In this document: positions 18,836 to 54,080 of the stretch, piece after piece | How the letters are laid out: each line of letters opens with the position of its first letter | How positions within the stretch are numbered: the first letter of the stretch is position 1 | Assembly (NCBI GenBank): GCA_003131625.1 | Contig: PKVY01000103.1 | Location: forward strand, 25,365-89,364 | DNA: 64,000 nucleotides | Source: Acidobacterium sp. | GTDB taxonomy: Bacteria > Acidobacteriota > Terriglobia > Terriglobales > Acidobacteriaceae | Direction: 5' to 3' | Position numbers and translations under genes: made by a program | The notes under the pieces: generated by a model | What the model saw: the letters and a program-made list of their open reading frames with translations, nothing else | Database searches by the model: none | Told to the model about the DNA's origin: nothing

Positions 18836-20065
18836 TCAGTTACAGGCCGTTGCGGAAGATTCCGCCTGAGAAAGACGGAATTCGTCGATGTAACTCCGCC
18901 ACGCATCCACTTTCTCTGACAGCCCCAAACTGTCGAGATAGCCAGCATCCAACGGGATGTCGCCGGCCTCCAGTGCGTCGCCGGATGCAATCGACAGGGC
19001 GTCTGCGCAGTGAACCGCGGTTAAGGGTGAAAAGCGCGCCTCGATGGCCTCCGATGGACGATGGTGAAACGCCACAGCGTGCACCAGGGAAATAGGTAGT
19101 CCCCACATGCTCATCAGATAGGCGCCTAACTGCGCGTGAGAACAGCCCAGAGCCTCGATCTCGAGGGCTTCGATGGAACGCGCGCAGCCCTCCGCATTCT
19201 TCAGAACTTCGCCGTACTCCTTGGGCTTCTCGGCGAGAAGAATGATCTTGCCGGCGTCGTGGAGCAGACCCGCCGCAAAGCACTCTTCGGCGAGTGACTT
19301 ATCGCCGGTTTCGTCCACCGCGATGCGCTGCGCGACGGAGGCGACGCAGACGCTGTGATCCCACAAGGCGGGAAGGGAACTGGCGACTGCGGATTTCCTG
19401 TCGAACTGAGAGAAGACGTGGATGGACAGGGTCAGGGTGCGGACCGTCTCGATCCCGATCAGCGAAACCGCCTGGCGCAGACTCGATACGCGGCCGTGCA
19501 CCCCGATGAATGCGGAGTTCGCCAGCTGAAGAATCTTCGACGCCATGCCAATGTCGCGCGCGATGATCTGCTCAATTTGCCCGAGCGATGCGGTTTCCGA
19601 GCGCAGGGCCACCGTCAGTTCGTTGTAGATGGCCGGCAAGCTGGGGATCGAGCGCAGTCGGGCAATGGCGGCGGCGATGGCCGGGTTCGTGACCAGATCG
19701 CGCGAGGCAAAGGCCTGGTTGAGACGCAGCTTGAGCTCCCGGATATCGCACGGCTTCGCCAGGTACTGATGCGCGGGGGCGATGGAGCGAAGCACGGCCT
19801 CTTTTTCCGACTGCCCGGACAAGATGATTCTGACGACCTGCGGGTAGCGATCCTTGATGCAATCCAGCAGCAGAGCGCCGTCCATGGAGGGCATGCGCAT
19901 GTCGGTAATCACCGCATCGAAGCGTTCCTTTTCGAGCGCCTGCAGGGCGGCGTAAGCGCCGGGAGCGAAGTGCATGTCCCATTCCTGGCGCATGTCGTGC
20001 AGAGCTCGCCGGAGCCCGGCGAGGACCAGGGCGTCGTCGTCGACGAAGAGCAGGCGTTTCAGCAT
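18836..20065 (-). CDS. response regulator, receiver + HDOD domain
   Basis: REC 'LLFVDDD...VITDMRMPSMDG...LAKP', then HDOD-like 'LPSLPAIYNEL...IIARDIGMASKILQLANSAF'. The start overlaps the kinase stop (ATGCTGA). Confidence 0.8.
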   Translation of the reverse strand: MLKRLLFVDDDALVLAGLRRALHDMRQEWDMHFAPGAYAALQALEKERFDAVITDMRMPSMDGALLLDCIKDRYPQVVRIILSGQSEKEAVLRSIAPAHQYLAKPCDIRELKLRLNQAFASRDLVTNPAIAAAIARLRSIPSLPAIYNELTVALRSETASLGQIEQIIARDIGMASKILQLANSAFIGVHGRVSSLRQAVSLIGIETVRTLTLSIHVFSQFDRKSAVASSLPALWDHSVCVASVAQRIAVDETGDKSLAEECFAAGLLHDAGKIILLAEKPKEYGEVLKNAEGCARSIEALEIEALGCSHAQLGAYLMSMWGLPISLVHAVAFHHRPSEAIEARFSPLTAVHCADALSIASGDALEAGDIPLDAGYLDSLGLSEKVDAWRSYIDEFRLSQAESSATACN

Positions 20066-22377
20066 CGGTTTTTCTCAGCTCCGCAGGCAGAACCGATGGG
20101 GAGGTGGATAAAGAACGTCGTGCCAGCGCCCATTTCTGTCTCGCACCAGATCTTTCCCTGGTGTTTTTTCACGACGACGCTGTGTGCCAGAGCCAGGCCC
20201 TGCCCGGTACCCGCGCCAACCTCCTTCGTAGTGAAGAAGGGCTCGAAAATCCGCGTGCGAATCTCCGGGGGGATTCCTGTGCCGGTGTCGGATACGGCGA
20301 TCTCCGCAAACGGTCCGCAAGTCCTGGTGCGAACCACGATTTGTCCCTTACCGGTTCCCTTCAGCTTCTGCCGGATGGCGTGCGCCGCGTTGACGATCAG
20401 GTTGAGGACCACCTGATTGACGTCGCCGGGATAGCAGAGAACGCGCGGAAGCGCCTCGTCAAAATCCGTGGTCAGGTCCGCTACGTATTTCCACTCGTTG
20501 TGGGCGATGGTGATGGTCGATGTGATCCCCTGGTTGAGATCGGCTTCCGCCTTTTCGGCAAGGTCCGGGTGAGAGAATTCCTTCACGGCGCGAACGATCT
20601 TCGCGATGCGTCGTACTCCTTCGAGACTCTGCGTGATGGCGCGCGGAACCTCTGCGCCGATGAATTCCAGGTCGCACACTCTTTCCGCTTCGGTCAGATC
20701 GCGGATGGCGTCCGCGGAGAATCTCTCCGAATCTTCCCGGACCGCCTTCCTGTAGAGTTCCAGCAATCCGAGTGCAGCCTCGCAGGACTCGCGAAGAAAG
20801 GTGAGGTTATCGGTGACGAATTGCGTGGGCGTATTGATCTCATGGGCAATGCCGGCGGCCAGCTGGCCGATTCCTTCCAGCTTCTGGGCCTGGCGAAGGT
20901 CGCCTTCGAGTGCGCGACGCTCCGTGATGTCTTCCTTGACGGCCAGGAAATGGGTGATCGACCCATTCGCGTCCACGATGGGCGACAGGACCGCCGACTC
21001 CCAGTAAAGCTCGCCATTTTTCTTTCTGTTACGAAATTCGCCCCGCCACTCCTTTCCAGCCAGGATGGTGGCCCAGAGGGTTTCGTACATGTGGGGGGGC
21101 GAATAGCCGGAATTGAGGATGCGCGGGTTCTTACCCCGCACTTCTTCGAGGGTGTAGCCCGTGCATTCAGTAAACTTCCGATTCGTATAACGAATATCGC
21201 CGTGCGTATCGGCGATGACCACGGAAACCGGGCTCTGCTCGACGGCGGCGGAGAGCTGGCGCAGAGTGTCTTCGTGGTGCCTGCGCTCGGTCATGTCGCG
21301 GAAGCTCCAGATGCGGCCGTAGTACTGGCCCTCGGCGGCCGTTACGGGAGAAGAATAGCGGTCCAGGATGGTCCCGTCCCTGAGTTCGATTTCATCCCGG
21401 CTGGTTTCCTCCGGATGACTGTAAAGTTCCCGGACCCGGTTCACGAACGATGCGGGGTCCTTGGTTCTCTGGGTGACGTGGCGGAGAACCGGCTCGTCGT
21501 CCGGGCCGGATGCCAGTGCGGCAGGGATTGCGAAGATCTCATTGAAGCGGCGGTTCTGCAGGATGCGCCGCCCGGCTGCGTCCACAACGAGGATGCCATC
21601 GATGGTTGAATTCGCCTGCGCCTCGAGAAAAGCGGTCTTCGCCTGCAGCTCGAGCTCAGACCATTTCCGCCGGGAGACGTCGCAGATCACCCCATCGGCG
21701 ATCGTGACGCCGTTCTCCTGCCAGGGGCCCATGGCCCGGTTGTGAAGCCAGATCCAGGTGTCGTCCTTGCGCTGAAAGCGAAACTCCTCATCCAGGGACG
21801 CGCCTTGGGAAAAGAGCGCCTGGGTGGCTTCCAGAACGCGGGACAGATCGTCGGGGTGGACGCGCGAGAGAAGAAACGGCGAGCCCCCGGCGTAAATCTC
21901 CTGAGAGGTGTACCCGGTCCAGTCCGCGACCTTGGGGCTGATATAAATCATGCGGCCGTTCTCATCCCCGGTCCACGCGACGTCGGGTTGATTGGTGAGG
22001 ATACGGCGAAACTTCTCTTCGCTCCGCTCCAGCCGGGCTCTGGTTTCCCTGGCGGTGCTCCGCATAGAGCTCACCCAGGCGGCGGCCAGGGCGCTCAGCA
22101 GAAACGGCAGCACTTCCGGTCCGGCCTCTGGGCTGATTCCGAGGGTGTGGAGCGGAGGCAGAAAGAAGTAGTCGAGTACCAGAGGCGCAACGCCAGCCGC
22201 TAACAAACCTGGCCCCCGGCCGCCCAGCCATCCGCTGGCAACAATGGCGGCGAGGAACAGATAGTCGACGCTGTGCGGAATGATGGAGTGGACCAGCTCG
22301 GACAACAGCAGCGCGAGGCCGACGAGGACCACCGCCAGCCCGTAGCGGACAATTCTGCTTCCTGGTGCGCGCCTCAC
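20059..22377 (-). CDS. sensor histidine kinase (DUF4118-like membrane module, 3 PAS, HK core)
   Basis: N-terminal TM region resembles the KdpD membrane module. Has PAS repeats, H-box 'GIAHEINTPTQFV' and ATPase boxes 'LIVNAAHA', 'DTGTGIP', 'GAGTGQGLA'. GTG start. Confidence 0.8.
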   Translation of the reverse strand: MRRAPGSRIVRYGLAVVLVGLALLLSELVHSIIPHSVDYLFLAAIVASGWLGGRGPGLLAAGVAPLVLDYFFLPPLHTLGISPEAGPEVLPFLLSALAAAWVSSMRSTARETRARLERSEEKFRRILTNQPDVAWTGDENGRMIYISPKVADWTGYTSQEIYAGGSPFLLSRVHPDDLSRVLEATQALFSQGASLDEEFRFQRKDDTWIWLHNRAMGPWQENGVTIADGVICDVSRRKWSELELQAKTAFLEAQANSTIDGILVVDAAGRRILQNRRFNEIFAIPAALASGPDDEPVLRHVTQRTKDPASFVNRVRELYSHPEETSRDEIELRDGTILDRYSSPVTAAEGQYYGRIWSFRDMTERRHHEDTLRQLSAAVEQSPVSVVIADTHGDIRYTNRKFTECTGYTLEEVRGKNPRILNSGYSPPHMYETLWATILAGKEWRGEFRNRKKNGELYWESAVLSPIVDANGSITHFLAVKEDITERRALEGDLRQAQKLEGIGQLAAGIAHEINTPTQFVTDNLTFLRESCEAALGLLELYRKAVREDSERFSADAIRDLTEAERVCDLEFIGAEVPRAITQSLEGVRRIAKIVRAVKEFSHPDLAEKAEADLNQGITSTITIAHNEWKYVADLTTDFDEALPRVLCYPGDVNQVVLNLIVNAAHAIRQKLKGTGKGQIVVRTRTCGPFAEIAVSDTGTGIPPEIRTRIFEPFFTTKEVGAGTGQGLALAHSVVVKKHQGKIWCETEMGAGTTFFIHLPIGSACGAEKNRC

Positions 22378-22613
22378 AAGGCGTTTATCGGCTCGATCTT
22401 CGACGCCATGACGGATCCTGGCCCGCTGGCCATCCTGTCAGGACCTCGGCTCGTGTTTTCGCTGGGTTCGCCGATATCCGTACCAGCTTCCCGTCCGGGT
22501 GGAGTCGACGCCGCGCGCGTCACCGCAAGTCGGACTTTCCCGGGGGACGGGTGGCCCCCGGCTGGTTGAGTCGGGAACGGACTCGATGCGCGAGTTCCGG
22601 GGAGGCAGCATTG

Positions 22614-23564
22614 GTGAAGGAAAAGATCCTGTGTGTCGACGACGAAGCGTCGGCGCTGGAGGGATACCAGAGAATCCTGCACCGGCAGTTCGAGGTCACC
22701 ACCGCGGTCAGCGGCGCGCAGGGGCTCGCCATCCTCCAGAAGTGGGGCCCTTTCGCCGTGGTCATATCGGATATGCGGATGCCGGGCATGAACGGCGCGG
22801 AGTTCCTCGCCCAGGTGCGGGAGAGGGCGCCGGAAACGGTGCGGATGCTGCTGACCGGCTACTCCGACATGAAGGCGGCTATCGACGCGGTGAACAAGGG
22901 ACGGATCCTGCAGTTCCTGACCAAGCCCTGCGAGCGCGATGTGCTGATCGCCGCGATCAACACCGGAGTGGCTCAGTATCGCAGCCAGACAGCGGAGAGA
23001 GAGATGGTGAAGAACGCGGAGAAAATGGGGCGCTCGAAGTCGGACTGGGAAGCCGTGGATTTCGATCGATGGGAGCACTTTGAGAGTTCCGCAGGCCTGC
23101 CCGGCCCCGCGCAGGCCCGAGCGCACCTTCTGCCGCGGGTGGGAACGGACGCTCAATGCTATGTCGCGCTGCTCAAGCTCACCGTCCTGCGCACCGTCGA
23201 AGAGCGTTACGGAGAGAAAGCTGCCGGCGACTACCTGGGAACGGTCGCCCAGCTGCTGACGCGGGCGCTCGGTGCTGACGATCAGCTCTTCCACTGGAGC
23301 CGGGACGTTCTGATGGCCGTGTTGCGGCGGCATATCTCTCCCGCCGCGGTCAGGATGGAGATGGAGCGGCTGGTCGCCGAGGCGCGGGAATACGTCATCG
23401 AAGTGAGCGGCAGGCGGATGATGATCGCCTGCCTGATCGCCTTCGACCTTCTGCCGGCAGCGCAGTTTCCGGGATTCAGCGACCTGCTGGCGGCCTTCGA
23501 TGCCGGGCTGGCCGGAGGTCTGCGCCGCGAGCGCCCCGACGACCAAGGGACGGCGCATGGATGA
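22614..23564 (+). CDS. response regulator, receiver + degenerate GGDEF-like domain
   Basis: GGAGG lies 8 nt before GTG 22614. REC 'ILCVDDE...VISDMRMPGMNG...LTKP'. The C-terminal region follows the GGDEF-fold spacing, but the signature position reads 'HWSRDVL'. Confidence 0.7.
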   Translation: MKEKILCVDDEASALEGYQRILHRQFEVTTAVSGAQGLAILQKWGPFAVVISDMRMPGMNGAEFLAQVRERAPETVRMLLTGYSDMKAAIDAVNKGRILQFLTKPCERDVLIAAINTGVAQYRSQTAEREMVKNAEKMGRSKSDWEAVDFDRWEHFESSAGLPGPAQARAHLLPRVGTDAQCYVALLKLTVLRTVEERYGEKAAGDYLGTVAQLLTRALGADDQLFHWSRDVLMAVLRRHISPAAVRMEMERLVAEAREYVIEVSGRRMMIACLIAFDLLPAAQFPGFSDLLAAFDAGLAGGLRRERPDDQGTAHG

Positions 23565-26500
23565 AGCTTTCCTCAACCCCGAAGCCGCGTGCGCCCGCTT
23601 GCCCCGGGATGCGGGCGACCTCACCGTCCCGCAACTTCTGGCGGAGCGAAAGGTCGCCGAAGCCGCTCTGCGGGAAGCGCGCGCCAAACTGCAGGCGGTT
23701 TTCGAAGGAGTGGAGACAGGAATCTTCGTCATCGATCCGGAATCGCACCGGATCGTCGACGCCAATCCCGTCGCGCTGGAACTGACCGGCGCGCCGCGCG
23801 AGAAGATGGTGGGCGCGGTGTGTCACAAATTCGTATGCCCGGCAGAACAGGGGCGCTGCCCGGTCACGGATCTGGGGCAGACGGTGGACAACTCGGAGCG
23901 CGTGCTGCTCACGGTGCAGGGGGAGAAGCGCTCGATTATCAAGACGGTAAGGCCGGTCGAAATCGACGGACGCCGCTATCTTCTGGAAAGTTTTCTCGAT
24001 ATTTCGCAGCGCAAGCGCGCGGAAAAGGCGCTCGAAGAGCAGACCGCCTATCTGAATACGCTGTTTGAAACCAGCCCTCTGGGCATCGTGGTTCTGGACG
24101 AAGACGAGCGGATTCAGATGTCGAATACGGCGCTGGAGCGGCTTTTCCTCTACTCGCGGGAGGAAATGAAGGGCCAGCGTCTGAGCGACTTACTCGTCCC
24201 TGACGATCTGGCTTCCGATGCCGGCCACTTCACCCAGGAATGTCTGGCCGGGAGGGGCGCGCACTTCACCAGCCAGCGCCGCCGCAAAGACAACGTGCTG
24301 GTAGACGTGGAGATCTTCGGAGTGCCGCTGGTCATCGCGGGCCGGCCGCGGGGAATCCTGGCGCTTTACCAGGACGTCACCGGGCGCCGGCAGGCGGAAG
24401 CGGAGCGGGCGGAACGCCATCGCCTGGCAACCCTGGCGGCCGAAGTTGGGCTGGCGCTCACCGGAGCCGAGGACCTGAGCGAGGGGCTGCAGCAATGCGT
24501 GGATGCGCTGATTCGCAACACGGACATCGCCTTTGCGCAGATCTGGACCGGCAACGAGAAGGAGCACCGTCTCGAGCTGCAGGCCAGCGCGGATATCCAG
24601 CTGAATTGCGGTCCCGATCGCCTGCGCATGGACCGTTCCAGACTCGAGCGCATTGCCGAAACCGGCGTAACCCAGCTGGACAACGCCTTTGCGGGCTATC
24701 CCCTCAAGGTTCGGGAACAGGTATTGGGGGTGGCGGCTGCCTTTTCCTGTCAGCCGCTGACCGAGGCCGCGCTGCAGGCATTCGAATCCGTGGTCCACAG
24801 CATCGCCCAGTTCGTGGAACGCAAGCGGGCGCAGGAATCCCTGCGTGAAAGCGAAGATCGATTCCGCACCGCGTTTGAAGAGGCTCCCCATGGCATGTGC
24901 ATGACCGGACTGGACGGACGTTTTCTGCATGCCAATGCGGCGCTGTGCCAGATGCTGGGCTACACAGCGGAGGAGTTGCTGGCCGGGGCCTGGCAGGGAA
25001 TCACCCACCCGGACGATCTGGAACGTTCGCGTCAGGTGAGGATTGAATTCGGCAAGGGCGTGGCGACCACGCTGGGGCTGGAAAAGCGGTACGTCCACAA
25101 ACGAGGGAACGCTGTATGGGTGAACGTGACGATTTCCGTGGTGAAGGACGGCTCCGGGAATCCCTCGCATTTTATTACCCAGGTGGAGGACATCACCCTG
25201 CGTAAGCAGGCCGACGAGGCGCAGGCCTTTCTGGTCTCGCTGGTGGAGTCCTCCCAGGACGCCATTATCGGCACCACACCGGAGGGCGTGGTCGTCAGCT
25301 GGAACCGAGGGGCCGCGGAGCTGTATGGGTACAGCGCCGGGGAGATGATCGGGAAGACGGCCGCGGTGGTGATTCCCCCGGAATGCCCCGACGAACTGTC
25401 CTCCATTTTGCGGACGATTCAGCGGCGAGAAGGAGTGGCCAGCCACGAGACAGTGAGGATCCGCAAGGATGGGCGGTCGGTAGAGATATCGCTGAATACC
25501 TCGCCGGTCTTCGACGCGGCCGGGAAGATTACCGGAGCGGTGCATATCGCCAGGGACATCACGCGCCGCAAGGTTGCCGAGGAACGGCTGCGCGCTTCGG
25601 AAGAGCGCTATCGGGAGCTGTTCGAAAACGCCAGCGACCTGGTGTACACCTTCGATCTCGACATGTGCATCACCTCGCTCAACCGCGTCGCCAAGGCGAC
25701 GATGGGGTATGCCGGGGAGGAAGCGATCGGGATGGACCTGCGGCAGCTCGTCGATGCTGAGCCGTGGAGGCGCGTCGAGGAAGCCGTGGATCGGCTGGTA
25801 GCAGGGCATCCCGCGGCGAAAATCGAGCTGGAGATCAGAGCCAAAGAGGGGCGGCGAGTGACGCTGGAAATGAATCCGCGCCTGATTTACAGGGACGGCA
25901 GGGCGGTGGGAATCCAGGCGATTGCGCGCGACATCACCGGGCGCGACGCGGCGGAGATGGAACTGCGCCAGGCCCAGAAGCTGGAATCGGTGGGCCGACT
26001 GGCGTCGGGGATCGCTCACGAAATCAATACTCCGATGCAGTTTGTAGGCGACAATGTGCGCTTCCTCCAGGATACGTTCGGAGAAGTGCAGGCTCTCATC
26101 GGCAAGGTGCATGAACTCTGCCAGCCCACCGCGAGCGCAGACCTGCCTGCGGAGCTGCGTCGCCTCGAGGCAGAACTCGATTGCGATTACCTGCTGAAGG
26201 AAATTCCCGAGGCGCTGACCCAGACCCTCGAGGGAGTGGACAGGGTGGTCACGATCGTGCGCGCGATGAAAGAATTCGCGCACCCCGAAAACAAGGGCAT
26301 GGTTCCGGCGGATCTGAACAAGGCTCTTCTGAATACGCTGACCGTCGCGCGCAATGAACTCAAGTATGTTGCCGACGTGGAAACCCAGTTCGGAGACTTG
26401 CCGCTGGTGGTTTGCAGTTTGAGCGATCTGAATCAGGTCTTCGTGAACCTGCTGGTCAATGCCGCCCACGCCATTGCGGAAGCGGTGGAGGGAACCGGAA

Positions 26501-26790
26501 AAAGAGGCAGGATCCTGATCCAGACAGGCCAGGAGGGCCCGATGGCGCAGATTACCATCGCGGACACCGGCGCGGGCATTCCGGAGGGGATTCGCGACCG
26601 GATTTTCGATCCTTTTTTCACGACCAAGGAAGTGGGCCGCGGAACCGGCCAGGGATTAGCGATTGCGCGGTCCGTGGTCGACCGCCATAAGGGAACCCTG
26701 ACCTTTGAGAGCGAAGTAGGGAAGGGGACGACCTTCCTGATTCGCCTCCCGATCGAAGGCTCCGAGGCCTCGGCATTGCCTGCACAGTAG
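23557..26790 (+). CDS. multi-PAS/GAF sensor histidine kinase
   Basis: ATG 23557 overlaps the upstream TGA (ATGGATGA). Several PAS units and a GAF-like segment. H-box 'GIAHEINTPMQFV' and ATPase boxes 'LLVNAAHA', 'DTGAGIP', 'GRGTGQGLA'. Confidence 0.8.
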   Translation: MDEAFLNPEAACARLPRDAGDLTVPQLLAERKVAEAALREARAKLQAVFEGVETGIFVIDPESHRIVDANPVALELTGAPREKMVGAVCHKFVCPAEQGRCPVTDLGQTVDNSERVLLTVQGEKRSIIKTVRPVEIDGRRYLLESFLDISQRKRAEKALEEQTAYLNTLFETSPLGIVVLDEDERIQMSNTALERLFLYSREEMKGQRLSDLLVPDDLASDAGHFTQECLAGRGAHFTSQRRRKDNVLVDVEIFGVPLVIAGRPRGILALYQDVTGRRQAEAERAERHRLATLAAEVGLALTGAEDLSEGLQQCVDALIRNTDIAFAQIWTGNEKEHRLELQASADIQLNCGPDRLRMDRSRLERIAETGVTQLDNAFAGYPLKVREQVLGVAAAFSCQPLTEAALQAFESVVHSIAQFVERKRAQESLRESEDRFRTAFEEAPHGMCMTGLDGRFLHANAALCQMLGYTAEELLAGAWQGITHPDDLERSRQVRIEFGKGVATTLGLEKRYVHKRGNAVWVNVTISVVKDGSGNPSHFITQVEDITLRKQADEAQAFLVSLVESSQDAIIGTTPEGVVVSWNRGAAELYGYSAGEMIGKTAAVVIPPECPDELSSILRTIQRREGVASHETVRIRKDGRSVEISLNTSPVFDAAGKITGAVHIARDITRRKVAEERLRASEERYRELFENASDLVYTFDLDMCITSLNRVAKATMGYAGEEAIGMDLRQLVDAEPWRRVEEAVDRLVAGHPAAKIELEIRAKEGRRVTLEMNPRLIYRDGRAVGIQAIARDITGRDAAEMELRQAQKLESVGRLASGIAHEINTPMQFVGDNVRFLQDTFGEVQALIGKVHELCQPTASADLPAELRRLEAELDCDYLLKEIPEALTQTLEGVDRVVTIVRAMKEFAHPENKGMVPADLNKALLNTLTVARNELKYVADVETQFGDLPLVVCSLSDLNQVFVNLLVNAAHAIAEAVEGTGKRGRILIQTGQEGPMAQITIADTGAGIPEGIRDRIFDPFFTTKEVGRGTGQGLAIARSVVDRHKGTLTFESEVGKGTTFLIRLPIEGSEASALPAQ

Positions 26791-45544: not shown

Positions 45545-45621
45545 TGGTGACCCCGGGAAGACTCGAACTTCCGACACGCAGTTTAGGAAACTGCTGCTCT
45601 ATCCACCTGAGCTACGGGGCC
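45545..45621 (-). tRNA. tRNA-Arg (anticodon CCU), CCA encoded
   Basis: The reverse complement folds as a cloverleaf. Acceptor GGCCCCG/CGGGGTC (one G:U); D arm GCTC-AGGTGGATA-GAGC; anticodon arm GCAGT-TTCCTAA-ACTGC; T arm GGAAG-TTCGAGT-CTTCC; ends in ACCA. Confidence 0.9.
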
Positions 45622-46608: not shown

Positions 46609-46711
46609 TCGTCCAGAACCCACGCGACGCGAGTAGTTCTGCTCCGATGACATATTTACCACTCGATTACTAACTTTGTCCTTCTCTTATGACCCCTTTG
46701 TGGGACGGACC

Positions 46712-46729
46712 CTGTTCAGTATTGATCAG
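46712..46729 (+). promoter_or_regulatory. 18-bp dyad motif CTGTTCAGTATTGATCAG, 66 nt upstream of response-regulator paralog 1
   Basis: Related motifs sit at the equivalent position upstream of the other two paralogs (51374-51391 and 52641-52658). Confidence 0.4.
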
Positions 46730-46795
46730 TGCGGCCTCTGCCGCGATGCCACACTTTGGGTTCGGGCGAAGTTCAATCTGCCCCCGAGGTGCCCT

Positions 46796-47386
46796 ATGCT
46801 CTACCTCACACCAGGTCTTCTCGTAGTGGACGATGAAGCGCTGGTCCGCACGTGTCTGTCCGACATGCTCACCAGATCCGGCTATACGGTGCGGGATGCC
46901 TCTGACGGTTTCTCTGCTTTGGCCGCAATCCGGGAGGAAATTCCCGACCTCATCCTCTCCGACCTCAACATGCCCGGCATGTCCGGCTTTGAATTCCTCT
47001 CCGTCGTCCGGCGCCGCTTTCCCTCCATTCGCGTCATCGCCATGAGCAGCGGATATGCAGGCGTCGATCTCCCCCCGGGAGTTGCCGCCGACGTTTTCTA
47101 TCAAAAAGGAAGCCATCCCACTTTCCTGCTTCGCATCGTCGAAGACATGACCCGCTCAGGCCAATCGCTGGTCACGCGCCGCCCCCGTATATTGGCGCCC
47201 ATCTGGGTTCCAACCAACGGGCACAATGCCTCTGGAGAGATGTACGTCACGATTTCCTGTCCTGAGTGCCTCAGGGCCTTCCCCCAAACCATCGACCACA
47301 GGGCCGCTACAACCCTCGAGACCAGGTGCGCCTGGTGCCGCGTCCCGATTCAGTGCGCGATCGTGCACTCCGCGACAGCCGCCTGA
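46796..47386 (+). CDS. orphan response regulator, receiver + C-terminal CxxC...CxxC zinc-ribbon-like domain (paralog 1)
   Basis: REC 'LLVVDDE...ILSDLNMPGMSG...IAMS...FYQKG'. C-terminus 'PIWVPTNGHN..GE.YVTISCPECLRAFPQ...RCAWCRVPI'. No HTH. Confidence 0.75.
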   Translation: MLYLTPGLLVVDDEALVRTCLSDMLTRSGYTVRDASDGFSALAAIREEIPDLILSDLNMPGMSGFEFLSVVRRRFPSIRVIAMSSGYAGVDLPPGVAADVFYQKGSHPTFLLRIVEDMTRSGQSLVTRRPRILAPIWVPTNGHNASGEMYVTISCPECLRAFPQTIDHRAATTLETRCAWCRVPIQCAIVHSATAA

Positions 47387-47466
47387 GATCCGCGCCCCGG
47401 CACGCGCCACTTCCGCGTGGCCCGGCACTCGTCAAGCCCGACAGCCGAGCGCTGACGCGTGGCTGG

Positions 47467-48222
47467 CTATCGAGCTCGCTCGGTCTGCTCACTCTGAGCG
47501 ATCTTCCGGGGTGGGCGGGGGGATGTGTCCGGGATGGGGGGCTTTTCCGCGTTATGCTCGGGCAACTGATCGTGCAGGATCACGTTGAGAAGCGACTGGT
47601 GCACGCGAATGCGACCGTTATATTCAATGAAGCCGAGCTTGCGGAATCGATTCATGAAAAAGCTGACACGGGACCGTGTAGTGCCGATCATATCCGCCAG
47701 AGTTCCCTGAGTAATGGCCGGAATCAGCGTTTCCGGCTCACCCGGCTGGCCGAATTCCGCCATCAACAGGAGGATGCGCGCCAGACGCTTCTCGCTGGAA
47801 TTGAAGAGCTGATCGACAAGATCGGCCTGCGTCCGCATACTGCGGGCCAGCAGGAACTTGAGGAACACATCGGAGAATGCATGCTCCTCGTGCATCACCT
47901 GGATCATCTCTTCGCGGTCGATCCGGAGCGCGGTACAGGCAGTAATGGAGGTGGCTGTTGCCATGCGCAAGCCCCCGCCGCCGGCGAGTGACTCCTCGCC
48001 AACGAAATCCCCGGCTCCGAGCAGAGTAATCGTAGCCTCTTTCCCATTCTTCGAAACAACGGTCAGCTTCGCGCGACCCTTCTGGAGATAGTAGATAGAG
48101 TCAGCAGGGGTTCCCTGCGAAAAGAAGACATGCTCCGGCTTCAACTGGACGATTCTCCGCCCCAGCCCGGCTTTCGCCAGAAAGTCATCGACGCTGAATG
48201 CAGTGTTCTCCTGCTCATCCAT
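47467..48222 (-). CDS. Crp/Fnr family transcriptional regulator (paralog 1)
   Basis: cNMP-binding-like barrel 'FFSQGTPADSIYYLQKGRAKL' and HTH 'TLADMIGTTRSRVSFFMNRFRKLGFI'. Confidence 0.85.
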   Translation of the reverse strand: MDEQENTAFSVDDFLAKAGLGRRIVQLKPEHVFFSQGTPADSIYYLQKGRAKLTVVSKNGKEATITLLGAGDFVGEESLAGGGGLRMATATSITACTALRIDREEMIQVMHEEHAFSDVFLKFLLARSMRTQADLVDQLFNSSEKRLARILLLMAEFGQPGEPETLIPAITQGTLADMIGTTRSRVSFFMNRFRKLGFIEYNGRIRVHQSLLNVILHDQLPEHNAEKPPIPDTSPRPPRKIAQSEQTERAR

Positions 48223-48418
48223 TGGAGGGACCTCCCACCGTTTCGACGGTGAACTTCAGGGCAAACTCATGCGCACTTACGGAGTGCTCATGAGCTCGCC
48301 GGGTAAGCTCGTGAGCGGTCGGATGATCCCCTGCTGCATGGGCCACGGCGGCGGCCGCATGGGCGTGGGCTGCGAGGTTGTGCAGTTCAGCGGCTCGATC
48401 GTGCGTGCTCTGTGGCAT
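48215..48418 (-). CDS. small His/Ala-rich protein (67 aa)
   Basis: AGGAA lies 6 nt before ATG 48418. Sequence 'HNLAAHAHAAAAVAHAAGDHPTAHELTRRAHEHSVSAHE'. The stop overlaps the Crp start by 8 nt. The longer ORF to 48640 has no support. Confidence 0.45.
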   Translation of the reverse strand: MPQSTHDRAAELHNLAAHAHAAAAVAHAAGDHPTAHELTRRAHEHSVSAHEFALKFTVETVGGPSNG

Positions 48419-48542
48419 GGCGTTCCTAACCGGACTTGAGTCCATCGAGAAAGAGAGCAGCTGCCCGTTTCCTGCCGATTGCAGCCCTGAGGCGAGCAGC
48501 GGATCCCTGTCTCCAGCGGTAGATGATAGCGATTGAGGTTGG

Positions 48543-48938
48543 CTACGGCCGTTTGTCGTCGCCAGGGTGACCGCGTCCATCCCGGGTTTCATTTGCCTTG
48601 AAGTTGCGGGGTGCGGGTTTGGAGCGACCCTTTTCGCCATTCTTTGGCAGTGAGCCCTGGTAGCCGTGCTGCGGATCGTAACGATTGTTTACGTGGCCAT
48701 TGAAGTGTTCGTCGCCATGAAACCATGGTCCGGCGCCGATGAAGGCACCGCCCGTGAACCACTCCGGGCCGTAGTAGCCGTAGGGAGCGCAGGTATAAGG
48801 AGAGTAGTCAAAGTAACCATAGGGACATGCGGGGGCGACTCCGATGTTGACGACCACCTGAGCCTTTGCTGCGGGAGCGGCTGCCACCAGGCAGATTCCC
48901 GCGGCAGCGGCGATTGCAAAAACACTGAACTTCTTCAT
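48543..48938 (-). CDS. secreted Tyr/Gly/Pro-rich hypothetical protein
   Basis: Clear signal peptide 'MKKFSVFAIAAAAGICLVAAAPAAKAQ', then 'CPYGYFDYSPYTCAPYGYYGPEWF'. Confidence 0.65.
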   Translation of the reverse strand: MKKFSVFAIAAAAGICLVAAAPAAKAQVVVNIGVAPACPYGYFDYSPYTCAPYGYYGPEWFTGGAFIGAGPWFHGDEHFNGHVNNRYDPQHGYQGSLPKNGEKGRSKPAPRNFKANETRDGRGHPGDDKRP

Positions 48939-49200
48939 GGATTCACCTTACTAACTTGTGACAACTTCGTTTTACATCTGGGCCATTTCTCCGACTGGGT
49001 CCTGGGGGAGGGAAATCGCTTACCAATCTGAGCTGGCTTCAAAACTCCGAACGCTGACATTCTTGCGCTCCTGTCCAATTGCTACCATCGCACCGGCAGA
49101 CACAATAATCTGTATCGTTCTGCTCACATCCCGGAATGGTTCAGTGCTGGACGCAACAGGCACGGCATCCTGTTATATCCCTGACGAGAATGCGTCCTGC

Positions 49201-50616
49201 CTAAAAAACAAACATGGCGATGCCGGCGGCAAACATCGCGACCGTAGTAATCGCCACAGCCGCCAGGCTCAGGCGCGAGCTGGGCTGACCCTGCATCAAT
49301 TTCTTGTCCGCCGCCACAACCAGGATGGCAACGAGCAGGAAAGGGGCAAGCAATCCATTGATAACTGCGGTCCAATAAAGCGCCTTCACCGGGTTAACGC
49401 CGGCAAAATTCAGACCTACTCCCACAGCGGTCGAGAGCAAAATCAGCGTGTAGAACCAACGCGCCTGTTTCAGTTTCCGGTTCAGGCCCTGGCGCCACCC
49501 CAGCGTTTCTGCGAAGGCGTATGCCGACGACCCGGCGAGAGTCGGAATGGCGAGAAATCCGACGCCGACAATACCCACAGTAAACAGAGTGGCTGCGAAT
49601 CTGCCGGCAAGAGGCCGAAGGGCTTCGGCGGCCTCGCGGGTCGTCTCGATGTGAGTAAGGCCGTGGCGGTTGAGGGTGATCCCGGTGGTCAGGATGATGA
49701 AGAACATCACCATATTCGAGAAAAACGAGCCAACGCCCACATCGATGTTCCTCATCTCCAGTTCCTGGCCCGATGCTCCCTTCCGCATGGCAAGGGTACT
49801 CTGGCCCGCGGCCTTCTCTTCTTCCACTTCTTCGCTGGCCTGCCAGAAAAAGAGATACGGACTGATCGTCGTACCGAGAAGCGCCACCAGCATCGACCAT
49901 TCAGCTCCGCTGTGTGGGATGGAGGGCACGAGGGTAGAACGTGCGACCTCGCGCCAGTTAACTCCCACCACGAACGCGGTAATGGGATAGGCAAAGAGCA
50001 CCAGGACCAGCCACTTGAGCGTGTTCGCGATCTGTTGATAACGGAGCCGGACGGTGGCCCATGAGATCAGGACAGCAAAAGTCACGACAAAGATGCGTGA
50101 ATCGATCCCGGACAGCATGGCAGCCGCATCGGCCATCCCGGCGAGGTCGGCGCCAATGTTGATGGTGTTTGCCATGAGCAAAGCGATGACGAACACGTAC
50201 AGCATCCAGACTGGAAATCGCGCCTTGAGATTGCCGGCAAGGCCCTGTCCCGTCACCTTGCCAATGCGTGCACACATCATCTGAACCGCGGCCATCAGAG
50301 GCCAGGTCAGGGCCGCGGTCCACAGCAGCCTGGTTCCAAACTGCGCGCCTGCCACGGAGTAGGTCGCTATTCCGGATGGGTCATCGTCGGCGGCGCCCGT
50401 AATCAGGCCAGGGCCAAGCGACTTCAGCACCAGTCGCATCCATCGAGAAGGGGAAAGCCTGGGCACGATCAGTCGGAGCGCGGAACGTCCGCCCGGGTTG
50501 TCAGGAAGAGTGCGCACGGCGTCTAAGGAATCATTCGTGACACTGGTCCGGTGCTTATTGTTGCCGTCTGCCGAAGTTTTTGTATCACGCTCGCGGCTGG
50601 TAAGGCCATTCGGCAT
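49201..50616 (-). CDS. NRAMP-family divalent metal cation transporter
   Basis: 'LGPGLITGAADDDPSGIATYS' and about 11 TM helices. Lies 24 nt downstream of response-regulator paralog 2. Confidence 0.8.
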   Translation of the reverse strand: MPNGLTSRERDTKTSADGNNKHRTSVTNDSLDAVRTLPDNPGGRSALRLIVPRLSPSRWMRLVLKSLGPGLITGAADDDPSGIATYSVAGAQFGTRLLWTAALTWPLMAAVQMMCARIGKVTGQGLAGNLKARFPVWMLYVFVIALLMANTINIGADLAGMADAAAMLSGIDSRIFVVTFAVLISWATVRLRYQQIANTLKWLVLVLFAYPITAFVVGVNWREVARSTLVPSIPHSGAEWSMLVALLGTTISPYLFFWQASEEVEEEKAAGQSTLAMRKGASGQELEMRNIDVGVGSFFSNMVMFFIILTTGITLNRHGLTHIETTREAAEALRPLAGRFAATLFTVGIVGVGFLAIPTLAGSSAYAFAETLGWRQGLNRKLKQARWFYTLILLSTAVGVGLNFAGVNPVKALYWTAVINGLLAPFLLVAILVVAADKKLMQGQPSSRLSLAAVAITTVAMFAAGIAMFVF

Positions 50617-50640
50617 CGGCGCGGCGCCTCTGTCGTGGTT

Positions 50641-51303
50641 TTAGAAACAGAGATTCGGAACGCCGAGAGAAGTGGGCGCCCCCGCGCCGGGCTTCCGCTG
50701 AAACGCCTGCGGCAGCGCTGAATCCTGCGGCTGGACGATGGCGTACTCAATCGGGCTGGAGCAGTAGACGCAGTCCGCCTGATGGATCCCATCGAGGCCT
50801 TTGCCGAGAACCTGCGGGAAGGTTCTCAGGCACTCCGTGCAGGTGACCATGACGTACGGTTCTCCGGCTGGGTCGTGCCCGTTGCGCGGAATCCAGATCG
50901 GCGCCATCGAGTTGGGGCGATCGGACGATGACAGGCGCGGGGATTGGGTCATCGCTTTCAAAATGCGGAACAAGAGGCCCGGATGGGTTCCTTTTTCATA
51001 GAAAGCGTCGGCGGCAACGCCGGGGGGCACGCCGTCGCCTGAGAACGCGGCGCTCATGGCGATCGCCTGGATCGCGGGAAATCGCCGACGCACCACCGAG
51101 AGCAATTCGAAACCGGACATGCGCGGCATATTGAGATCCGCGACGATGACATCCGGAATCTCTCGCCGCATTTCGGCCAGTGCGGAGAAGCCGTCGTCAG
51201 CCGTCCGCACGCTGTATCCAAATTCGTCAAGGATGGCCGAGAGAGCCATCCGAATCGGCGCTTCGTCGTCTACGATAAGGAGTCTTGCCCTGGTTTCCTG
51301 CAT
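50641..51303 (-). CDS. orphan response regulator, receiver + zinc-ribbon-like domain (paralog 2)
   Basis: GAAGGGGG RBS before ATG 51303. 'LLIVDDE...IVADLNMPRMSG'. C-terminus 'PIWIPRNGHD..GEPYVMVTCTECLRTFPQ...DCVYCSSPI'. Confidence 0.75.
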   Translation of the reverse strand: MQETRARLLIVDDEAPIRMALSAILDEFGYSVRTADDGFSALAEMRREIPDVIVADLNMPRMSGFELLSVVRRRFPAIQAIAMSAAFSGDGVPPGVAADAFYEKGTHPGLLFRILKAMTQSPRLSSSDRPNSMAPIWIPRNGHDPAGEPYVMVTCTECLRTFPQVLGKGLDGIHQADCVYCSSPIEYAIVQPQDSALPQAFQRKPGAGAPTSLGVPNLCF

Positions 51304-51373
51304 CGTGCCCCCTTCAGATGATGAACCAACACGTGTGGGTAAGAGCATCCTCCTCCTCTGACAATCTTCAATG

Positions 51374-51391
51374 CTGGTCAATTCTGCTCAG
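51374..51391 (-). promoter_or_regulatory. 18-bp dyad motif (gene orientation CTGAGCAGAATTGACCAG), 70 nt upstream of paralog 2
   Basis: Matches the paralog-3 motif at 14 of 18 positions and sits at the equivalent distance from the start codon. Confidence 0.35.
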
Positions 51392-51738
51392 CCCAGGCCC
51401 TTTCATCGATTCGTCGATCGCACTATAGTGCGTCGTTGATCTTCGCCGTTCCGATGGACAGAATATCCGCCTGGACCGGTGGCGGCGAGCTGCGTGGACC
51501 GATTCGAAAAGCCCCTGGCGGCCTTCGCCCACCCCGCGACAGAGGCGTCGCCGCGAAGTTCCTCCCGAGCGATGCACCGCAACAATCACTTCTCTTGTTT
51601 GGCCGACTGAGCGTTTCTGACCAGCTTTGCGAAACCTCCCCGTTCCATACTCGCTGGGTTGAGTGTCCTGACCGGGCGTGGAAACCTCTCAAACCCGATC
51701 CTCCCCGTCGCCGGCATTCAACGCCCAGGAGGGCGAAA

Positions 51739-52317
51739 ATGAATCCAGAACTGACGAATCCCAGACTGATTGCGGGCGCGATTGCGATCGTCCTGATCAT
51801 CGTCGTTGTGGTTGCGCTGTACTTGCGAAAGCGCAGAAAAACCACTGAGGGCCTGCGCGCTCGCTTCGGGCCGGAATACGACCAGGCCGTTCTCACGCAT
51901 GGTTCCGAACGCAAGGCCGAAGCGAAACTGGCGGATCGTGAGACGCGCGTAGAAGGGCTGAAGATCCGCGAGCTGGGCGCCGCGGAACGGGAACGCTTCA
52001 TAGCGGACTGGCATGTCGTGCAATCGCGCTTTGTCGATCACCCAAAGGGCGCCGTCACGGAAGCCGATGAGCTGGTCTCTTCGTTGCTGAAGGCGCGCGG
52101 CTATCCCGTCGCCGAATTCGATCAGCGCACCGACGACATTTCCGTCAACCATCCGCGCCTGGTGGAGTATTACCGCTCTGCGCACGGCGTCGCGGTGCGA
52201 GTAGGCCGAGAAGAGGCGAGCACGGAAGACCTGCGAAACGCGATGATCCAGTACCGCTCGCTCTTCGATGAACTCGTCGAGGTGAAGACGCCCGGCGAAA
52301 TCAAAGCTGTCGCATAA
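51739..52317 (+). CDS. single-pass membrane protein of unknown function
   Basis: AGGAGGG RBS before ATG 51739. TM 'LIAGAIAIVLIIVVVVALYL', then a conserved-looking 'LRARFGPEYDQAV' helical domain. The upstream ORF extension from 51436 is unsupported. Confidence 0.6.
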   Translation: MNPELTNPRLIAGAIAIVLIIVVVVALYLRKRRKTTEGLRARFGPEYDQAVLTHGSERKAEAKLADRETRVEGLKIRELGAAERERFIADWHVVQSRFVDHPKGAVTEADELVSSLLKARGYPVAEFDQRTDDISVNHPRLVEYYRSAHGVAVRVGREEASTEDLRNAMIQYRSLFDELVEVKTPGEIKAVA

Positions 52318-52351
52318 TCACGCATTTGACCTGGAGTGAAGGGAGACTGAA

Positions 52352-52507
52352 ATGATTCTGCTCATTATCGTTCTGCTGTTGGTTTTCGGACTTGGCGGCG
52401 GATATTTTGGTTACAACCGCTGGGGCTATCGCGGGGGCGGCGGTATAGGCCTCGGCACCGTGCTGGTGATCCTGCTGGTGTGCTATCTGCTGGGGGCCTT
52501 CCGATAG
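52352..52507 (+). CDS. DUF3309-like small membrane protein (51 aa)
   Basis: GGGAG RBS. 'MILLIIVLLLVFGLGGGYFGYNRWGYRGGGGIGLGTVLVILLVCYLLG' shows two TM segments flanking a Gly-rich loop. Below the ORF-track cut-off. Confidence 0.55.
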   Translation: MILLIIVLLLVFGLGGGYFGYNRWGYRGGGGIGLGTVLVILLVCYLLGAFR

Positions 52508-52640
52508 CGCGTAGGGCGGTGTGGTATCCCGCGCCGCGCCGATCCAGAATACTGCTCGATATCGCTCATCCCGGCCCTTCATCGGAGATCTGAGCCGCGT
52601 TGGGGAACGTCCGATCGGAATAAGGAACGAATCCGCGAAT

Positions 52641-52658
52641 CTGTGCAATATTGAACAG
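52641..52658 (+). promoter_or_regulatory. 18-bp dyad motif CTGTGCAATATTGAACAG, 64 nt upstream of paralog 3
   Basis: 16 of 18 positions are self-complementary. 15 of 18 are identical to the paralog-1 motif. Confidence 0.4.
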
Positions 52659-52722
52659 CACCGAAACCGGGGCGATGCGAGACTTATCGAGACGCGGTTA
52701 GATGCTGTCCTGCGGGTGAGCG

Positions 52723-53427
52723 ATGCCCAACCTGAAAGCAAGCCTTCTGGTCGTAGACGATGAACCGGCGTTTCGCAAAACGCTGTCCGTATTGCTTACC
52801 GCTCTTGGCTATGCGGTGCGGAGCGTCCCGAACGGCTTCTCGGCACTGGATGCCATACGGGATGAGATTCCCGACCTTCTTCTCTGTGACCTGTACATGC
52901 CCGGAATGTCGGGCTTTGAACTGCTCTCGATTGTCCGCCGCCGGTTCCCCTCAGTCCGGGTAATCGCTATGAGCGGCGCATTCTCCGGTATGGCAGTGCC
53001 TCCGGGCGTTGCCGCCGACGCCTTTTATGAAAAGGGCAGACGTCCGGCGCTCCTGCTCCGGATCGTGCAAACGATGATGCGCCCACCGCGATCGCTGGTC
53101 ATTCATCCCCCACGTTCCAACGCGCCCATCTGGATTCCCACCAACGGGCACAATACGTCGGGAGAACCCTACGTCCTGATTTCCTGTCCTGAGTGCCTCA
53201 GGGCGTTCCCACAGATTCCGGACAAGAGCGCCGCCACCATGCTCGATACAAAATGCGCCTGGTGCTCCAGCCCCATTCGCTACGCGATTGTCCACTCCGC
53301 CGATCCCAAATCGCCGCAGGAGCCAGCCGCGGGAAATCCGCCTGAGCCGCGCCCCCCGTTGCCCTCTGACTATGCTTCAGCGCTATCCGGGACAGGAGCG
53401 CCTGCCGCGTCCGCCTCGGGCAATTGA
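52723..53427 (+). CDS. orphan response regulator, receiver + zinc-ribbon-like domain (paralog 3)
   Basis: 'LLVVDDE...LLCDLYMPGMSG'. C-terminus 'PIWIPTNGHN..GEPYVLISCPECLRAFPQ...KCAWCSSPI'. Pro/Ala-rich tail. Confidence 0.75.
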   Translation: MPNLKASLLVVDDEPAFRKTLSVLLTALGYAVRSVPNGFSALDAIRDEIPDLLLCDLYMPGMSGFELLSIVRRRFPSVRVIAMSGAFSGMAVPPGVAADAFYEKGRRPALLLRIVQTMMRPPRSLVIHPPRSNAPIWIPTNGHNTSGEPYVLISCPECLRAFPQIPDKSAATMLDTKCAWCSSPIRYAIVHSADPKSPQEPAAGNPPEPRPPLPSDYASALSGTGAPAASASGN

Positions 53428-54080
53428 TCCATCAGCACCACGTTCAGCAGGGACTTGTGGACGTGGATGCCGCCGTTATACTCAATGAACCCGAGCTTGC
53501 GAAAGCGATTCATGAAGAAGCTGACGCGCGAGCGGGTGGTGCCGACCATCTCCGCCAAGGTTTCCTGCGAGATCTTCGGGATCAACGATTCCGGTTGACC
53601 CGGCTTGCCGAATTGCGCCATCAACAGAAGAATCCGGGCGAGGCGCTTTTCGCTGGAGTTGAAAAGCTGGTCTACAAGGTCGGCTTGAATGCGCATGCTG
53701 CGTGCCAGCAGAAACGACAGAAACCGGTCGGAGAAGGCAGGCTCTTGATGCATCACGCGAATCATCTCCCCCCTCTCGATCCTGAGGGCGGCACACGGAG
53801 TGATGGCAGTAGCGGTTGCCATTCGCAGCCCCGCCACTGCAGCGAGGCACTCCTCTCCAACGAAGTCGCCGGCGGAAAGAAGCGTGATGGTGGCTTCTTT
53901 GCCGTTGGCTGAAAAGACAGTGAGCTTGGCGCGGCCATCCTGAAGATAGAAAATCGAGTCGGCGGGATTTCCCTGGGAAAAGAAGACCTGATTCGCCTGC
54001 ATCTGCACGATTTTTCGCCCCAGGCCGGCATTCGCCAGAAAGGCCTCGGCGTCAAACGGAATTTTCTGAAGGTCAATCAT
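53370..54080 (-). CDS. Crp/Fnr family transcriptional regulator (paralog 2)
   Basis: Most positions are identical to 47467-48222, for example 'NGKEATITLL', 'SSEKRLARILLLMA' and 'GTTRSRVSFFMNRFRKLGFIEYNG'. Confidence 0.85.
   Translation of the reverse strand: MIDLQKIPFDAEAFLANAGLGRKIVQMQANQVFFSQGNPADSIFYLQDGRAKLTVFSANGKEATITLLSAGDFVGEECLAAVAGLRMATATAITPCAALRIERGEMIRVMHQEPAFSDRFLSFLLARSMRIQADLVDQLFNSSEKRLARILLLMAQFGKPGQPESLIPKISQETLAEMVGTTRSRVSFFMNRFRKLGFIEYNGGIHVHKSLLNVVLMDQLPEADAAGAPVPDSAEA

Follow-up and report, generated by a model that had tools for sequence, protein, structure and literature searches.

A receiver–zinc-ribbon response-regulator family of Terriglobales acidobacteria and a candidate Crp-type regulon associated with it

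Phosphorylatable receivers that have neither a DNA-binding or enzymatic output nor a linked kinase are known from the response regulators CheY, DivK, CpdR and FixT. Small proteins can also act on transcription factors, and in cyanobacteria the Crp-family regulator NtcA is co-activated by PipX, a small β-protein. Caulobacter FixT is a receiver of the FixLJ-FixK regulon, carries a four-cysteine Fe-S motif (C53, C56, C59 and C64) within the receiver itself and is degraded by Lon (PMC7078487). TackOD1, an archaeal response-regulator output, has 11 conserved cysteines (five CxxC plus HxxC) and is double-zinc-ribbon-like (PMC5847659). Here we analysed a 64,000-nucleotide stretch of Acidobacterium sp. 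(assembly GCA_003131625.1, contig PKVY01000103.1, positions 25,365 to 89,364; hereafter the window) and found three paralogous genes, RR1, RR2 and RR3, that encode a receiver followed by a four-cysteine, zinc-ribbon-like module (RR-ZnR). Each is preceded by a conserved palindromic box, and two of them face a Crp/Fnr-family gene. Terriglobales acidobacteria are among the most abundant soil and peat bacteria, and to our knowledge almost nothing is known about their gene regulation. Judging from sequence comparisons, we rate the RR-ZnR proteins as response regulators with a putative new output domain inside a newly recognised Crp-type regulon. In a literature search we found neither the architecture nor the box nor the Crp subfamily described, and papers on the A. 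capsulatum transcriptome made no mention of these regulators.

The receiver genes, supported by PF00072 matches and by alignment, and the two Crp/Fnr-family genes facing them are as follows:

46796-47386, plus strand: RR1, receiver (residues 1-120) and module (residues 134-190, 47195-47365), C-terminus SATAA
50641-51303, minus strand: RR2, receiver and module (50734-50904)
52723-53427, plus strand: RR3, receiver, module (53122-53292) and disordered tail
47467-48222, minus strand: Crp1, Crp/Fnr-family protein with cNMP_binding and HTH_Crp_2 domains, convergent with RR1, closest solved relative M. tuberculosis Crp
53370-54080, minus strand: Crp2, Crp/Fnr-family protein, convergent with RR3, 3' ends overlapping by 58 nt

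All three receivers match PF00072 (E 1e-18 to 1e-19, the match ending at model position ~79), and the proteins share 53-65% pairwise identity. The catalytic and switch residues are complete: the acidic pair, phospho-acceptor Asp, β4 Ser/Thr, β5 aromatic and β5 Lys are present as D12/D13, D56, S84, Y102 and K104, each of them fixed or conserved to at least 90% across 92 homologues. A variable linker leads to a module of ~57 aa with the consensus APIW(I/V)PxNGHxxxGExYVxIxC(P/T)ECLRxFPQ-(13)-CxxCxxPIxxAIV, whose two CxxC motifs are separated by 19 residues (CxxC-x19-CxxC). The module region of RR1-RR3 gave no Pfam, NCBIfam or helix-turn-helix (HTH) match, and scans of the full proteins returned the receiver only. 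The original prediction, made from the sequence alone, had described three paralogous receivers with phospho-acceptor hallmarks, each followed by a conserved four-cysteine module without HTH; both statements hold, and the coordinates agree. In public gene calls on identical metagenome contigs, the RR1 product has 196 aa.

Like CheY, DivK, CpdR and FixT, RR-ZnR proteins have a phosphorylatable receiver and lack both a linked kinase and a DNA-binding or enzymatic output; they differ from these regulators by the extra ~57-aa C4 ribbon after a linker, by cysteines outside the receiver, by the lack of helix α4 in the model, and by their multi-copy, Terriglobales-restricted occurrence. FixT shares two more features, namely a regulon that contains a Crp/Fnr-type regulator (FixK) and a four-cysteine motif, and is itself under proteolytic control. 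However, FixT is a single receiver with an internal four-cysteine motif, whereas the RR-ZnR proteins have two domains and carry their cysteines in the C-terminal one. TackOD1 likewise follows a receiver with a cysteine-rich, predicted metal-binding domain; the RR-ZnR module differs in having four cysteines and a bacterial origin, and has no detectable sequence relation to it.

We then modelled the proteins with AlphaFold using 92 sequences. The receiver was predicted with a predicted local distance difference test (pLDDT) score above 90 and a loop at the α4 position, and the linker (residues 121-135) was disordered. The module was all-β with five strands (pLDDT ~82-86, and ~78-86 over all models) and the same topology when modelled alone; its two CxxC knuckles sit on β-hairpins. 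With Foldseek, the full model retrieved receivers only, at E ~1e-8 and template modelling (TM) scores of 0.8-0.9 on the target for solved receivers, marking the receiver as a genuine REC domain of (βα)5 fold. The module alone had no match in the Protein Data Bank (PDB) with E below 1, and its best meaningful neighbour was the ZitP zinc finger (2nb9; TM 0.47/0.60, E ~2, not significant). A PDB sequence search with the module profile produced only spurious similarity to C2H2 fingers ('CPECGKSF'), and a Pfam scan restricted to the module (E up to 10) gave matches below cut-off throughout, to DUF7836 in 28 of 42 sequences (best E 2.5e-4) and to Zn_ribbon_5 in 5 of 42. The latter family covers the MJ0042/ZitP-type ribbons, which also place two CxxC knuckles on β-hairpins; the module differs by extra N-terminal strands and its own motifs APIWIPxNGH and CLRxFPQ, and these matches are not significant. 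The module is zinc-ribbon-like, but these comparisons gave it no clear place in a described family. Its median isoelectric point (pI) is 5.8 with a net charge of -2, and its invariant residues are mainly hydrophobic or aromatic. The PDB sequence search, Foldseek, the charge and the sub-threshold Pfam matches led us to reject a known DNA-binding domain, and comparison of the C-terminal ~60 aa with known domains likewise gave no enzymatic match. Since the module is small, acidic and free of a nucleic-acid-binding signature, we infer a protein target, and we take the modelled fold to be, probably, a new domain of zinc-ribbon type that binds proteins and not nucleic acids.

The receiver–module architecture proved to be widespread. 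A search with the C-terminal halves returned 887 clusters (90% identity) annotated only as "CheY-like" or "response regulator", the few named ones belonging to Acidobacteriaceae, and CxxC-x19-CxxC was present in all 120 of the 120 best hits among them. A 67-residue module profile run against 1.84 billion representatives (E <= 0.001) found 316 proteins. Among the best 150 of these 316, 100 had the family receiver ahead of the module and the rest were short fragments or miscalled open reading frames (ORFs); all four cysteines were present in 140, and the 10 exceptions were truncated or frameshifted. We also found a second subfamily with the same architecture (APVWIPRNGKD...CTECLRSFPLNV), which is larger (4683 clusters at E <= 1e-20) and includes unclassified Terriglobales as well as Ca. 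Angelobacter. Scanning one genome for each species yielded 276 confirmed copies, nearly all in Acidobacteriaceae/Terriglobales metagenome-assembled genomes (MAGs) and isolates, with at least seven copies in some single MAGs; a tandem locus is present in the cultured strains Silvibacterium bohemicum S15 (L048) and Acidobacterium sp. S8 (L042). As judged from these searches, the module is found almost solely behind a receiver, the family comprises hundreds to thousands of clusters, and it appears so far restricted to Terriglobales (Acidobacteriota). The conserved cysteines and the lack of a known DNA-binding or enzymatic match support a real architecture without earlier description, as the original prediction suggested. 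These data delineate a large family of response regulators that is lineage-specific and whose output domain is unannotated.

Three further observations concern individual members. The metagenome protein P0231 (331 aa) has an extra N-terminal receiver-like domain (REC-REC-ZnR, where REC denotes the receiver) and is the only alternative module architecture seen. A Crp-then-RR-ZnR tandem whose Crp is 79% identical to Crp1 occurs in a sequence labelled 'uncultured Verrucomicrobiae' (L033, OY970299.1); the label is probably a taxonomic error, transfer being less likely. Finally, an xAA-COOH end like that of RR1 (47372-47383) is carried by 69 of 206 family members and lies exactly 6 residues past the last strand in 46 of those 69, similar to ssrA/CtrA-type ClpXP degrons. 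Such C-termini, found in one third of the family including RR1 (SATAA), are a hint of ClpXP-type turnover.

The promoters of the three genes in the window share a conserved box followed by a -10-like element. The position weight matrix (PWM) scores below come from a matrix trained on the same promoters that it scores, a circularity that the regular-expression and window-wide scans lessen but do not remove:

46713-46728: box upstream of RR1 (TGTTCAGTATTGATCA), PWM score 27
46747-46755, plus strand: extended -10-like element TGcCACACT of the RR1 promoter, beginning at offset 19 after the box
51375-51390: box upstream of RR2 (TGAGCAGAATTGACCA on the minus strand), PWM score 25, in a divergent region shared with the 51436/51739 (plus-strand) gene
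51347-51352, minus strand: GAGGAT, the -10-like hexamer of the RR2 promoter, 22 nt beyond the box (in L004, the orthologous promoter shows the usual 21 nt)
52642-52657: box upstream of RR3 (TGTGCAATATTGAACA), the highest-scoring of the window (PWM score 30)
52676-52684, plus strand: extended -10-like element TGcGAGACT of the RR3 promoter, beginning at offset 19 after the box

The box is a 16-bp palindrome, TGWKCA-N4-TGMWCA, with inverted half-sites one helical turn apart. It came only from aligning the 24 tandem intergenic regions, which share a conserved block, gTGAGCAAAATTGAACAg, followed by TGgGATACT; no motif dominated when perfect gapped palindromes were enumerated upstream of genes. In 87 of 90 family genes, a site 52-90 nt before the start codon matches TGWKCAAWWTTGMWCA at 13/16 positions or more, with or without a nearby Crp gene. 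With the strict regular expression TGNNCANNNNTGNNCA, 69% of RR genes had an upstream hit, compared with 22% of Crp genes and 5% of other genes; hits in the loci reached 0.113 per kb, about 8-fold over the 0.013 per kb predicted by base composition. Strong PWM sites in the 64-kb window number only three, 46711-46730, 51373-51392 and 52640-52659, one before each RR gene, and at a PWM cut-off of 12 there were 8 hits on both strands compared with 0-2 in shuffled sequence. The box is also carried by genes for an NRAMP transporter, a fatty-acid desaturase, a protein with a Ysc84 domain, a second Crp-like family and several small uncharacterised proteins. A first sketch of the regulon thus appears to include RR-ZnR and Crp genes together with NRAMP, desaturase, Ysc84-domain and small stress-type proteins, of which the RR-ZnR genes are the most constant members, with the Crp genes beside them.

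Downstream of the box, positions +22 to +27 read nAnnnT (A in 65 and T in 61 of 87 promoters) and TG stands at +19/+20 in 62 of 87, which together form an extended -10-like element; the spacing from box to -10 is 21 nt in 62 of 87. The box is centred at about -41.5 (RR1, RR3) and -42.5 (RR2) relative to the predicted start. A generic promoter scan found no -35/-10 promoter in these regions, and the predicted 5' untranslated regions of 32-36 nt support the chosen start codons. Relative to the predicted -10, the box thus has the geometry of a class II CRP/FNR-activated promoter, in which a 16-bp TG...CA inverted repeat at about -41.5 likewise replaces the -35 element ahead of an extended -10; this regulatory link was absent from the original prediction.

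We next considered the genes around the family. Crp1 and Crp2 are 74% identical and both score above cut-off for PF00027 and PF13545; the 3' ends of RR1 and Crp1 are 80 nt apart, and those of RR3 and Crp2 overlap, in line with the earlier observation that paralogs 1 and 3 face two very similar Crp/Fnr genes. The same RR3/Crp2 tail overlap (53370-53427, opposite strands) is found at 57 nt in two other genomes (L004, L016); it could cause transcriptional interference or merely reflect poorly constrained tails. In 75 genome loci we recorded the nearest gene of the Crp1/Crp2 subfamily for 83 RR-ZnR copies with at least 1.5 kb on both sides; these loci were picked by similarity to window proteins and are MAG-heavy, and orthologous loci inflate the counts, which are not independent events. 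A Crp gene lay within 600 nt of 35 copies, directly upstream on the same strand in 25 (gaps of 53-344 nt), convergent as in the window in 6, downstream on the same strand in 3 and divergent in 1; it lay between 600 nt and 3 kb in another 25 copies, and 23 of the 83 had none within 3 kb. All-against-all clustering of 1104 neighbouring ORFs identified the Crp family as the sole consistent neighbour (68 copies in 52 loci), the next commonest family reaching 22 copies, and no kinase cluster recurred beside the family in the 75 loci. In the distant subfamily, the Crp gene is adjacent in 3 of 4 genomes, divergent or further upstream, so that adjacency and box are both kept while the orientation differs. 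With 6 of 35 adjacent pairs convergent and 25 of 35 having the Crp gene upstream on the same strand, convergent orientation is ruled out as the conserved feature. The original prediction of a duplicated, convergent RR/Crp module is therefore upheld in part: the association with one Crp subfamily persists across genera and into the distant subfamily, and the convergent layout is a local variant.

Several features point to the neighbouring Crp subfamily as the factor that most likely binds the box. Its recognition helix, GTTRSRVSFFMNRFRKLG, is the same in 45 of 68 copies; relative to M. tuberculosis Crp, it changes precisely where bases are contacted (RETVNK to RSRVSF), a change matched by the divergence of the box half-site, TG(A/T)(G/T)CA, from TGTGA (CRP) and TTGAT (FNR). 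Of 70 Crp genes in an independent metagenome sample, 32 had the box within 450 nt upstream, and the box also stands ahead of Crp genes without an RR gene nearby. The phosphate-binding cassette is changed from RTS in M. tuberculosis Crp to RMA, outside the canonical R-[ST]-A, and Crp1/Crp2 sequences lack an FNR-type N-terminal cysteine cluster; given the cassette change, these regulators may need a non-nucleotide input. We offer the box as a candidate DNA motif of this highly conserved Crp/Fnr subfamily. A different assignment would make the zinc ribbon itself a DNA-binding output and the palindrome an RR-ZnR autoregulatory site, given that the box precedes nearly every family gene, that response regulators often autoregulate and that zinc ribbons can bind nucleic acids. 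We consider this highly improbable: the acidic to neutral module with mostly hydrophobic or aromatic conserved residues is ill suited to DNA, a 16-bp inverted repeat with one-turn half-site spacing fits a Crp/Fnr dimer, the invariant Crp helix matches the invariant motif, and the box occurs before Crp genes that have no RR gene nearby.

To locate the surfaces on which the family varies, we calculated mean column entropies. Helix α1 (1.9 bits) and the β5-α5 loop with α5 (1.8 bits) are the most variable structured parts, whereas helix α3 (SGFELLSVVRRRFP) reaches only 0.2 bits (0.21) and the zinc-ribbon core is near-invariant except for the inter-knuckle loop. In two-component systems, α1 and the β5-α5 region carry kinase-partner specificity, and α3 of a receiver is usually variable and exposed. 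In the RR proteins, α3 (residues 64-74, e.g. 52912-52944 in the window) forms an Arg-rich patch, which could dock the acidic zinc ribbon or a partner. As originally noted, no histidine kinase lies in the segment 46712-54080; the nearest are two PAS kinases at 20-27 kb, which adjoin other regulators (REC-HDOD and REC-GGDEF genes). The variable kinase-facing surfaces, the near-invariant α3 and ribbon core, the presence of at least seven paralogs in some genomes and the lack of a linked kinase together suggest many kinases acting on one common output surface.

On these grounds, the whole best explanation, to which we assign a probability of roughly 45%, is that RR-ZnR proteins are Crp-activated, phosphorylation-gated adaptors that feed back on the Crp regulon. 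The RR-ZnR genes would be hallmark targets of one Crp/Fnr subfamily, not tied to it in obligate 1:1 pairs; the neighbouring Crp would bind the box at about -41.5 and activate them, and Crp genes, which often carry the same box, may be under the same control. Each paralog would be phosphorylated by a different, unlinked kinase, and all would contact one common conserved target through the near-invariant α3 and zinc-ribbon surfaces. As the target, a complex of Crp with RNA polymerase at these promoters would be the likeliest and, given the genomic and regulatory coupling, the simplest candidate; several kinase inputs would thereby be returned to the Crp regulon. The originally proposed RR–Crp partnership would thus survive in a broader version without pair specificity. 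If true, this would be a new coupling of histidine-kinase signalling to a Crp-type activator.

A more specific form of the adaptor proposal, which we regard as possible but rather unlikely, is a split response regulator: the phosphorylated zinc ribbon would dock, at the -41.5 box, onto either RNA polymerase or the Crp dimer and switch transcription. The REC-ZnR protein would then be the missing signal input of a Crp subfamily that would have lost canonical cyclic-nucleotide binding, served by orphan kinases, with the adaptor gene under the same box as a feedback loop; two-component signalling would be wired in trans into a one-component regulator. NtcA-PipX offers a hypothetical functional likeness, in that a small non-DNA-binding protein modulates a Crp/Fnr-family activator at class II promoters; PipX differs in not being a response regulator, in its Tudor-like fold and in not being encoded beside ntcA, and no homology was found.

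Besides the sampling of the related loci described above, several results weigh against the adaptor proposal. In a reverse test on Crp-subfamily genes from metagenome contigs (34 copies with enough flank, up to 4 kb each side), an RR-ZnR gene lay directly downstream of 5 and within 3 kb of 2 more, while the other 27 of these unbiased Crp genes had none in the flanks obtained. A mirror-tree test found paired RR/Crp distances uncorrelated (Mantel r = 0.06, permutation sd 0.10, not significant), which speaks against a specific interface, although the near-invariance of both families leaves the test little power. A second, more distant Crp-like family (cNMP_binding plus HTH_Crp_2, ~275 aa; L020, L027, L047), found in these neighbourhoods too, has the box upstream and is an alternative candidate for the box-binding factor. 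In addition, the transcription start is predicted from the -10-like element, and acidobacterial promoter rules are poorly known. Because of the asymmetry seen from the Crp side and the uncorrelated paired distances, the RR–Crp gene link is real but not strictly 1:1. Seen from the Crp side, an RR-ZnR neighbour accompanies only about 15-20% of the genes. The box and the family remain testable handles even if the adaptor proposal is wrong.

These figures also bear on the originally proposed pair-specific arrangement, in which each RR-ZnR protein would be a dedicated, phosphorylation-dependent anti- or co-activator of the adjacent Crp, and the convergent pairs duplicated two-gene modules. Crp is the only conserved neighbour, the two families have been amplified together in the same regions, and adjacency is retained in the distant subfamily; the RTS-to-RMA cassette suggests that Crp may need another input, an acidic zinc ribbon is suited to protein binding, and PipX/NtcA is a precedent, with NtcA-PipX entries among the PDB relatives of Crp. 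Yet the rarity of convergence among adjacent pairs (6/35), the RR copies without a Crp gene within 3 kb (23/83), the few Crp genes with an adjacent RR gene (5/34) and the Mantel result all argue against such pairs, and nothing in the identical Crp reading helix or the invariant zinc-ribbon surface marks pair recognition. We therefore hold dedicated pairing to be quite unlikely.

Feedback of the FixT kind was also considered, in which the Crp regulon would induce RR-ZnR proteins that inhibit kinase autophosphorylation or act as phosphate sinks and so damp the signal. Control by a Crp/Fnr-type box is reminiscent of fixT in the FixLJ-FixK microaerobic regulon, and Caulobacter FixT combines a four-cysteine motif with proteolytic control (PMC7078487). 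The variable kinase-facing surfaces of the RR-ZnR family would imply specific kinase contacts, and the xAA-COOH ends of one third of its members resemble ClpXP-type degrons. However, no kinase or DNA-binding response regulator is linked to the loci and no cascade is visible, and a sink or inhibitor role leaves the near-invariant extra domain unexplained. FixT itself has a single domain with the cysteines inside the receiver and has never been seen phosphorylated (PMC7078487). We consider this explanation unlikely.

Beyond the regulators, the segment contains small-protein and transporter genes, which occupy the following positions:

48215-48418, minus strand: His/Ala-rich 67-aa ORF, 3' end overlapping the Crp1 start codon by 8 nt
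48543-48938, minus strand: secreted Tyr/Gly-rich 131-aa protein with a signal-peptide-like N-terminus, conserved in 9 loci
49201-50616, minus strand: NRAMP-family transporter (PF01566, E 1e-79), 24 nt 3' of RR2
51739-52317, plus strand: single-pass membrane protein, likely start MNPELT at 51739 (ORF open from 51436), conserved in 15 loci
52352-52507, plus strand: DUF3309 small membrane protein (PF11752, E 8e-7)

The NRAMP gene is probably co-transcribed with RR2, the gap of 24 nt being exactly as first reported, and the succession of an RR2-type gene and NRAMP is found in 8 loci (including L010, L016, L017, L028, L029, L035 and L054; gap 24-170 nt), while in L036 and L079 a separate box belongs to the NRAMP gene. 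In place of the DPGN of canonical NRAMPs, the transporter carries DPSG, and its substrate may therefore not be Mn/Fe. The His/Ala-rich ORF is conserved over its C-terminal ~65 aa (60-74% identity) directly 5' of Crp1-type genes in 16 genome loci, and may form a small-protein–Crp operon with Crp1; at 48215-48418, public gene callers instead give a 56-aa ORF on the opposite strand. Neither the Tyr/Gly-rich protein nor the membrane protein at 51739-52317 had a Pfam match. The small proteins first noticed between the regulatory genes are thus confirmed by the DUF3309 match and by conservation of the Tyr/Gly-rich and His/Ala-rich proteins in related loci.

These neighbours raise the idea of a metal or redox sensor, compatible with the other explanations, in which the four cysteines would bind Fe (rubredoxin-like) or Fe-S and tie activity or stability to metal supply or oxidants. 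The RR2-type–NRAMP tandem, the NRAMP genes with a box of their own and the His-rich small ORF translationally coupled to Crp1-type genes would fit such a role, for which Fe-S-binding FixT is a precedent (PMC7078487). Against this, CxxC...CxxC on two β-knuckles is the standard arrangement of structural zinc, most family genes have no metal-related neighbour, and the metal cannot be read from the sequence; we consider a sensing role very unlikely. The system is of wider interest because the lineage is large and ecologically important, because its operator signature is unusually clean and because a two-component input to a Crp-type activator is possible.

A few features elsewhere in the window were also recorded. 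A tRNA gene (45548-45621, minus strand), the sole Rfam match in the window, lies just 5' of the regulatory segment. A separate signalling cluster at 18836-26790 encodes a REC-HDOD protein, a DUF4118-PAS histidine kinase, a REC-GGDEF protein and a 1096-aa multi-PAS/GAF histidine kinase, with no evident link to the RR-ZnR genes. Positions 5349-17163 carry genes for a TPR-CHAT protein, a caspase-like (Peptidase_C14) plus DUF4384 protein and a second TPR-CHAT protein, a composition that resembles a conflict or programmed-death system.

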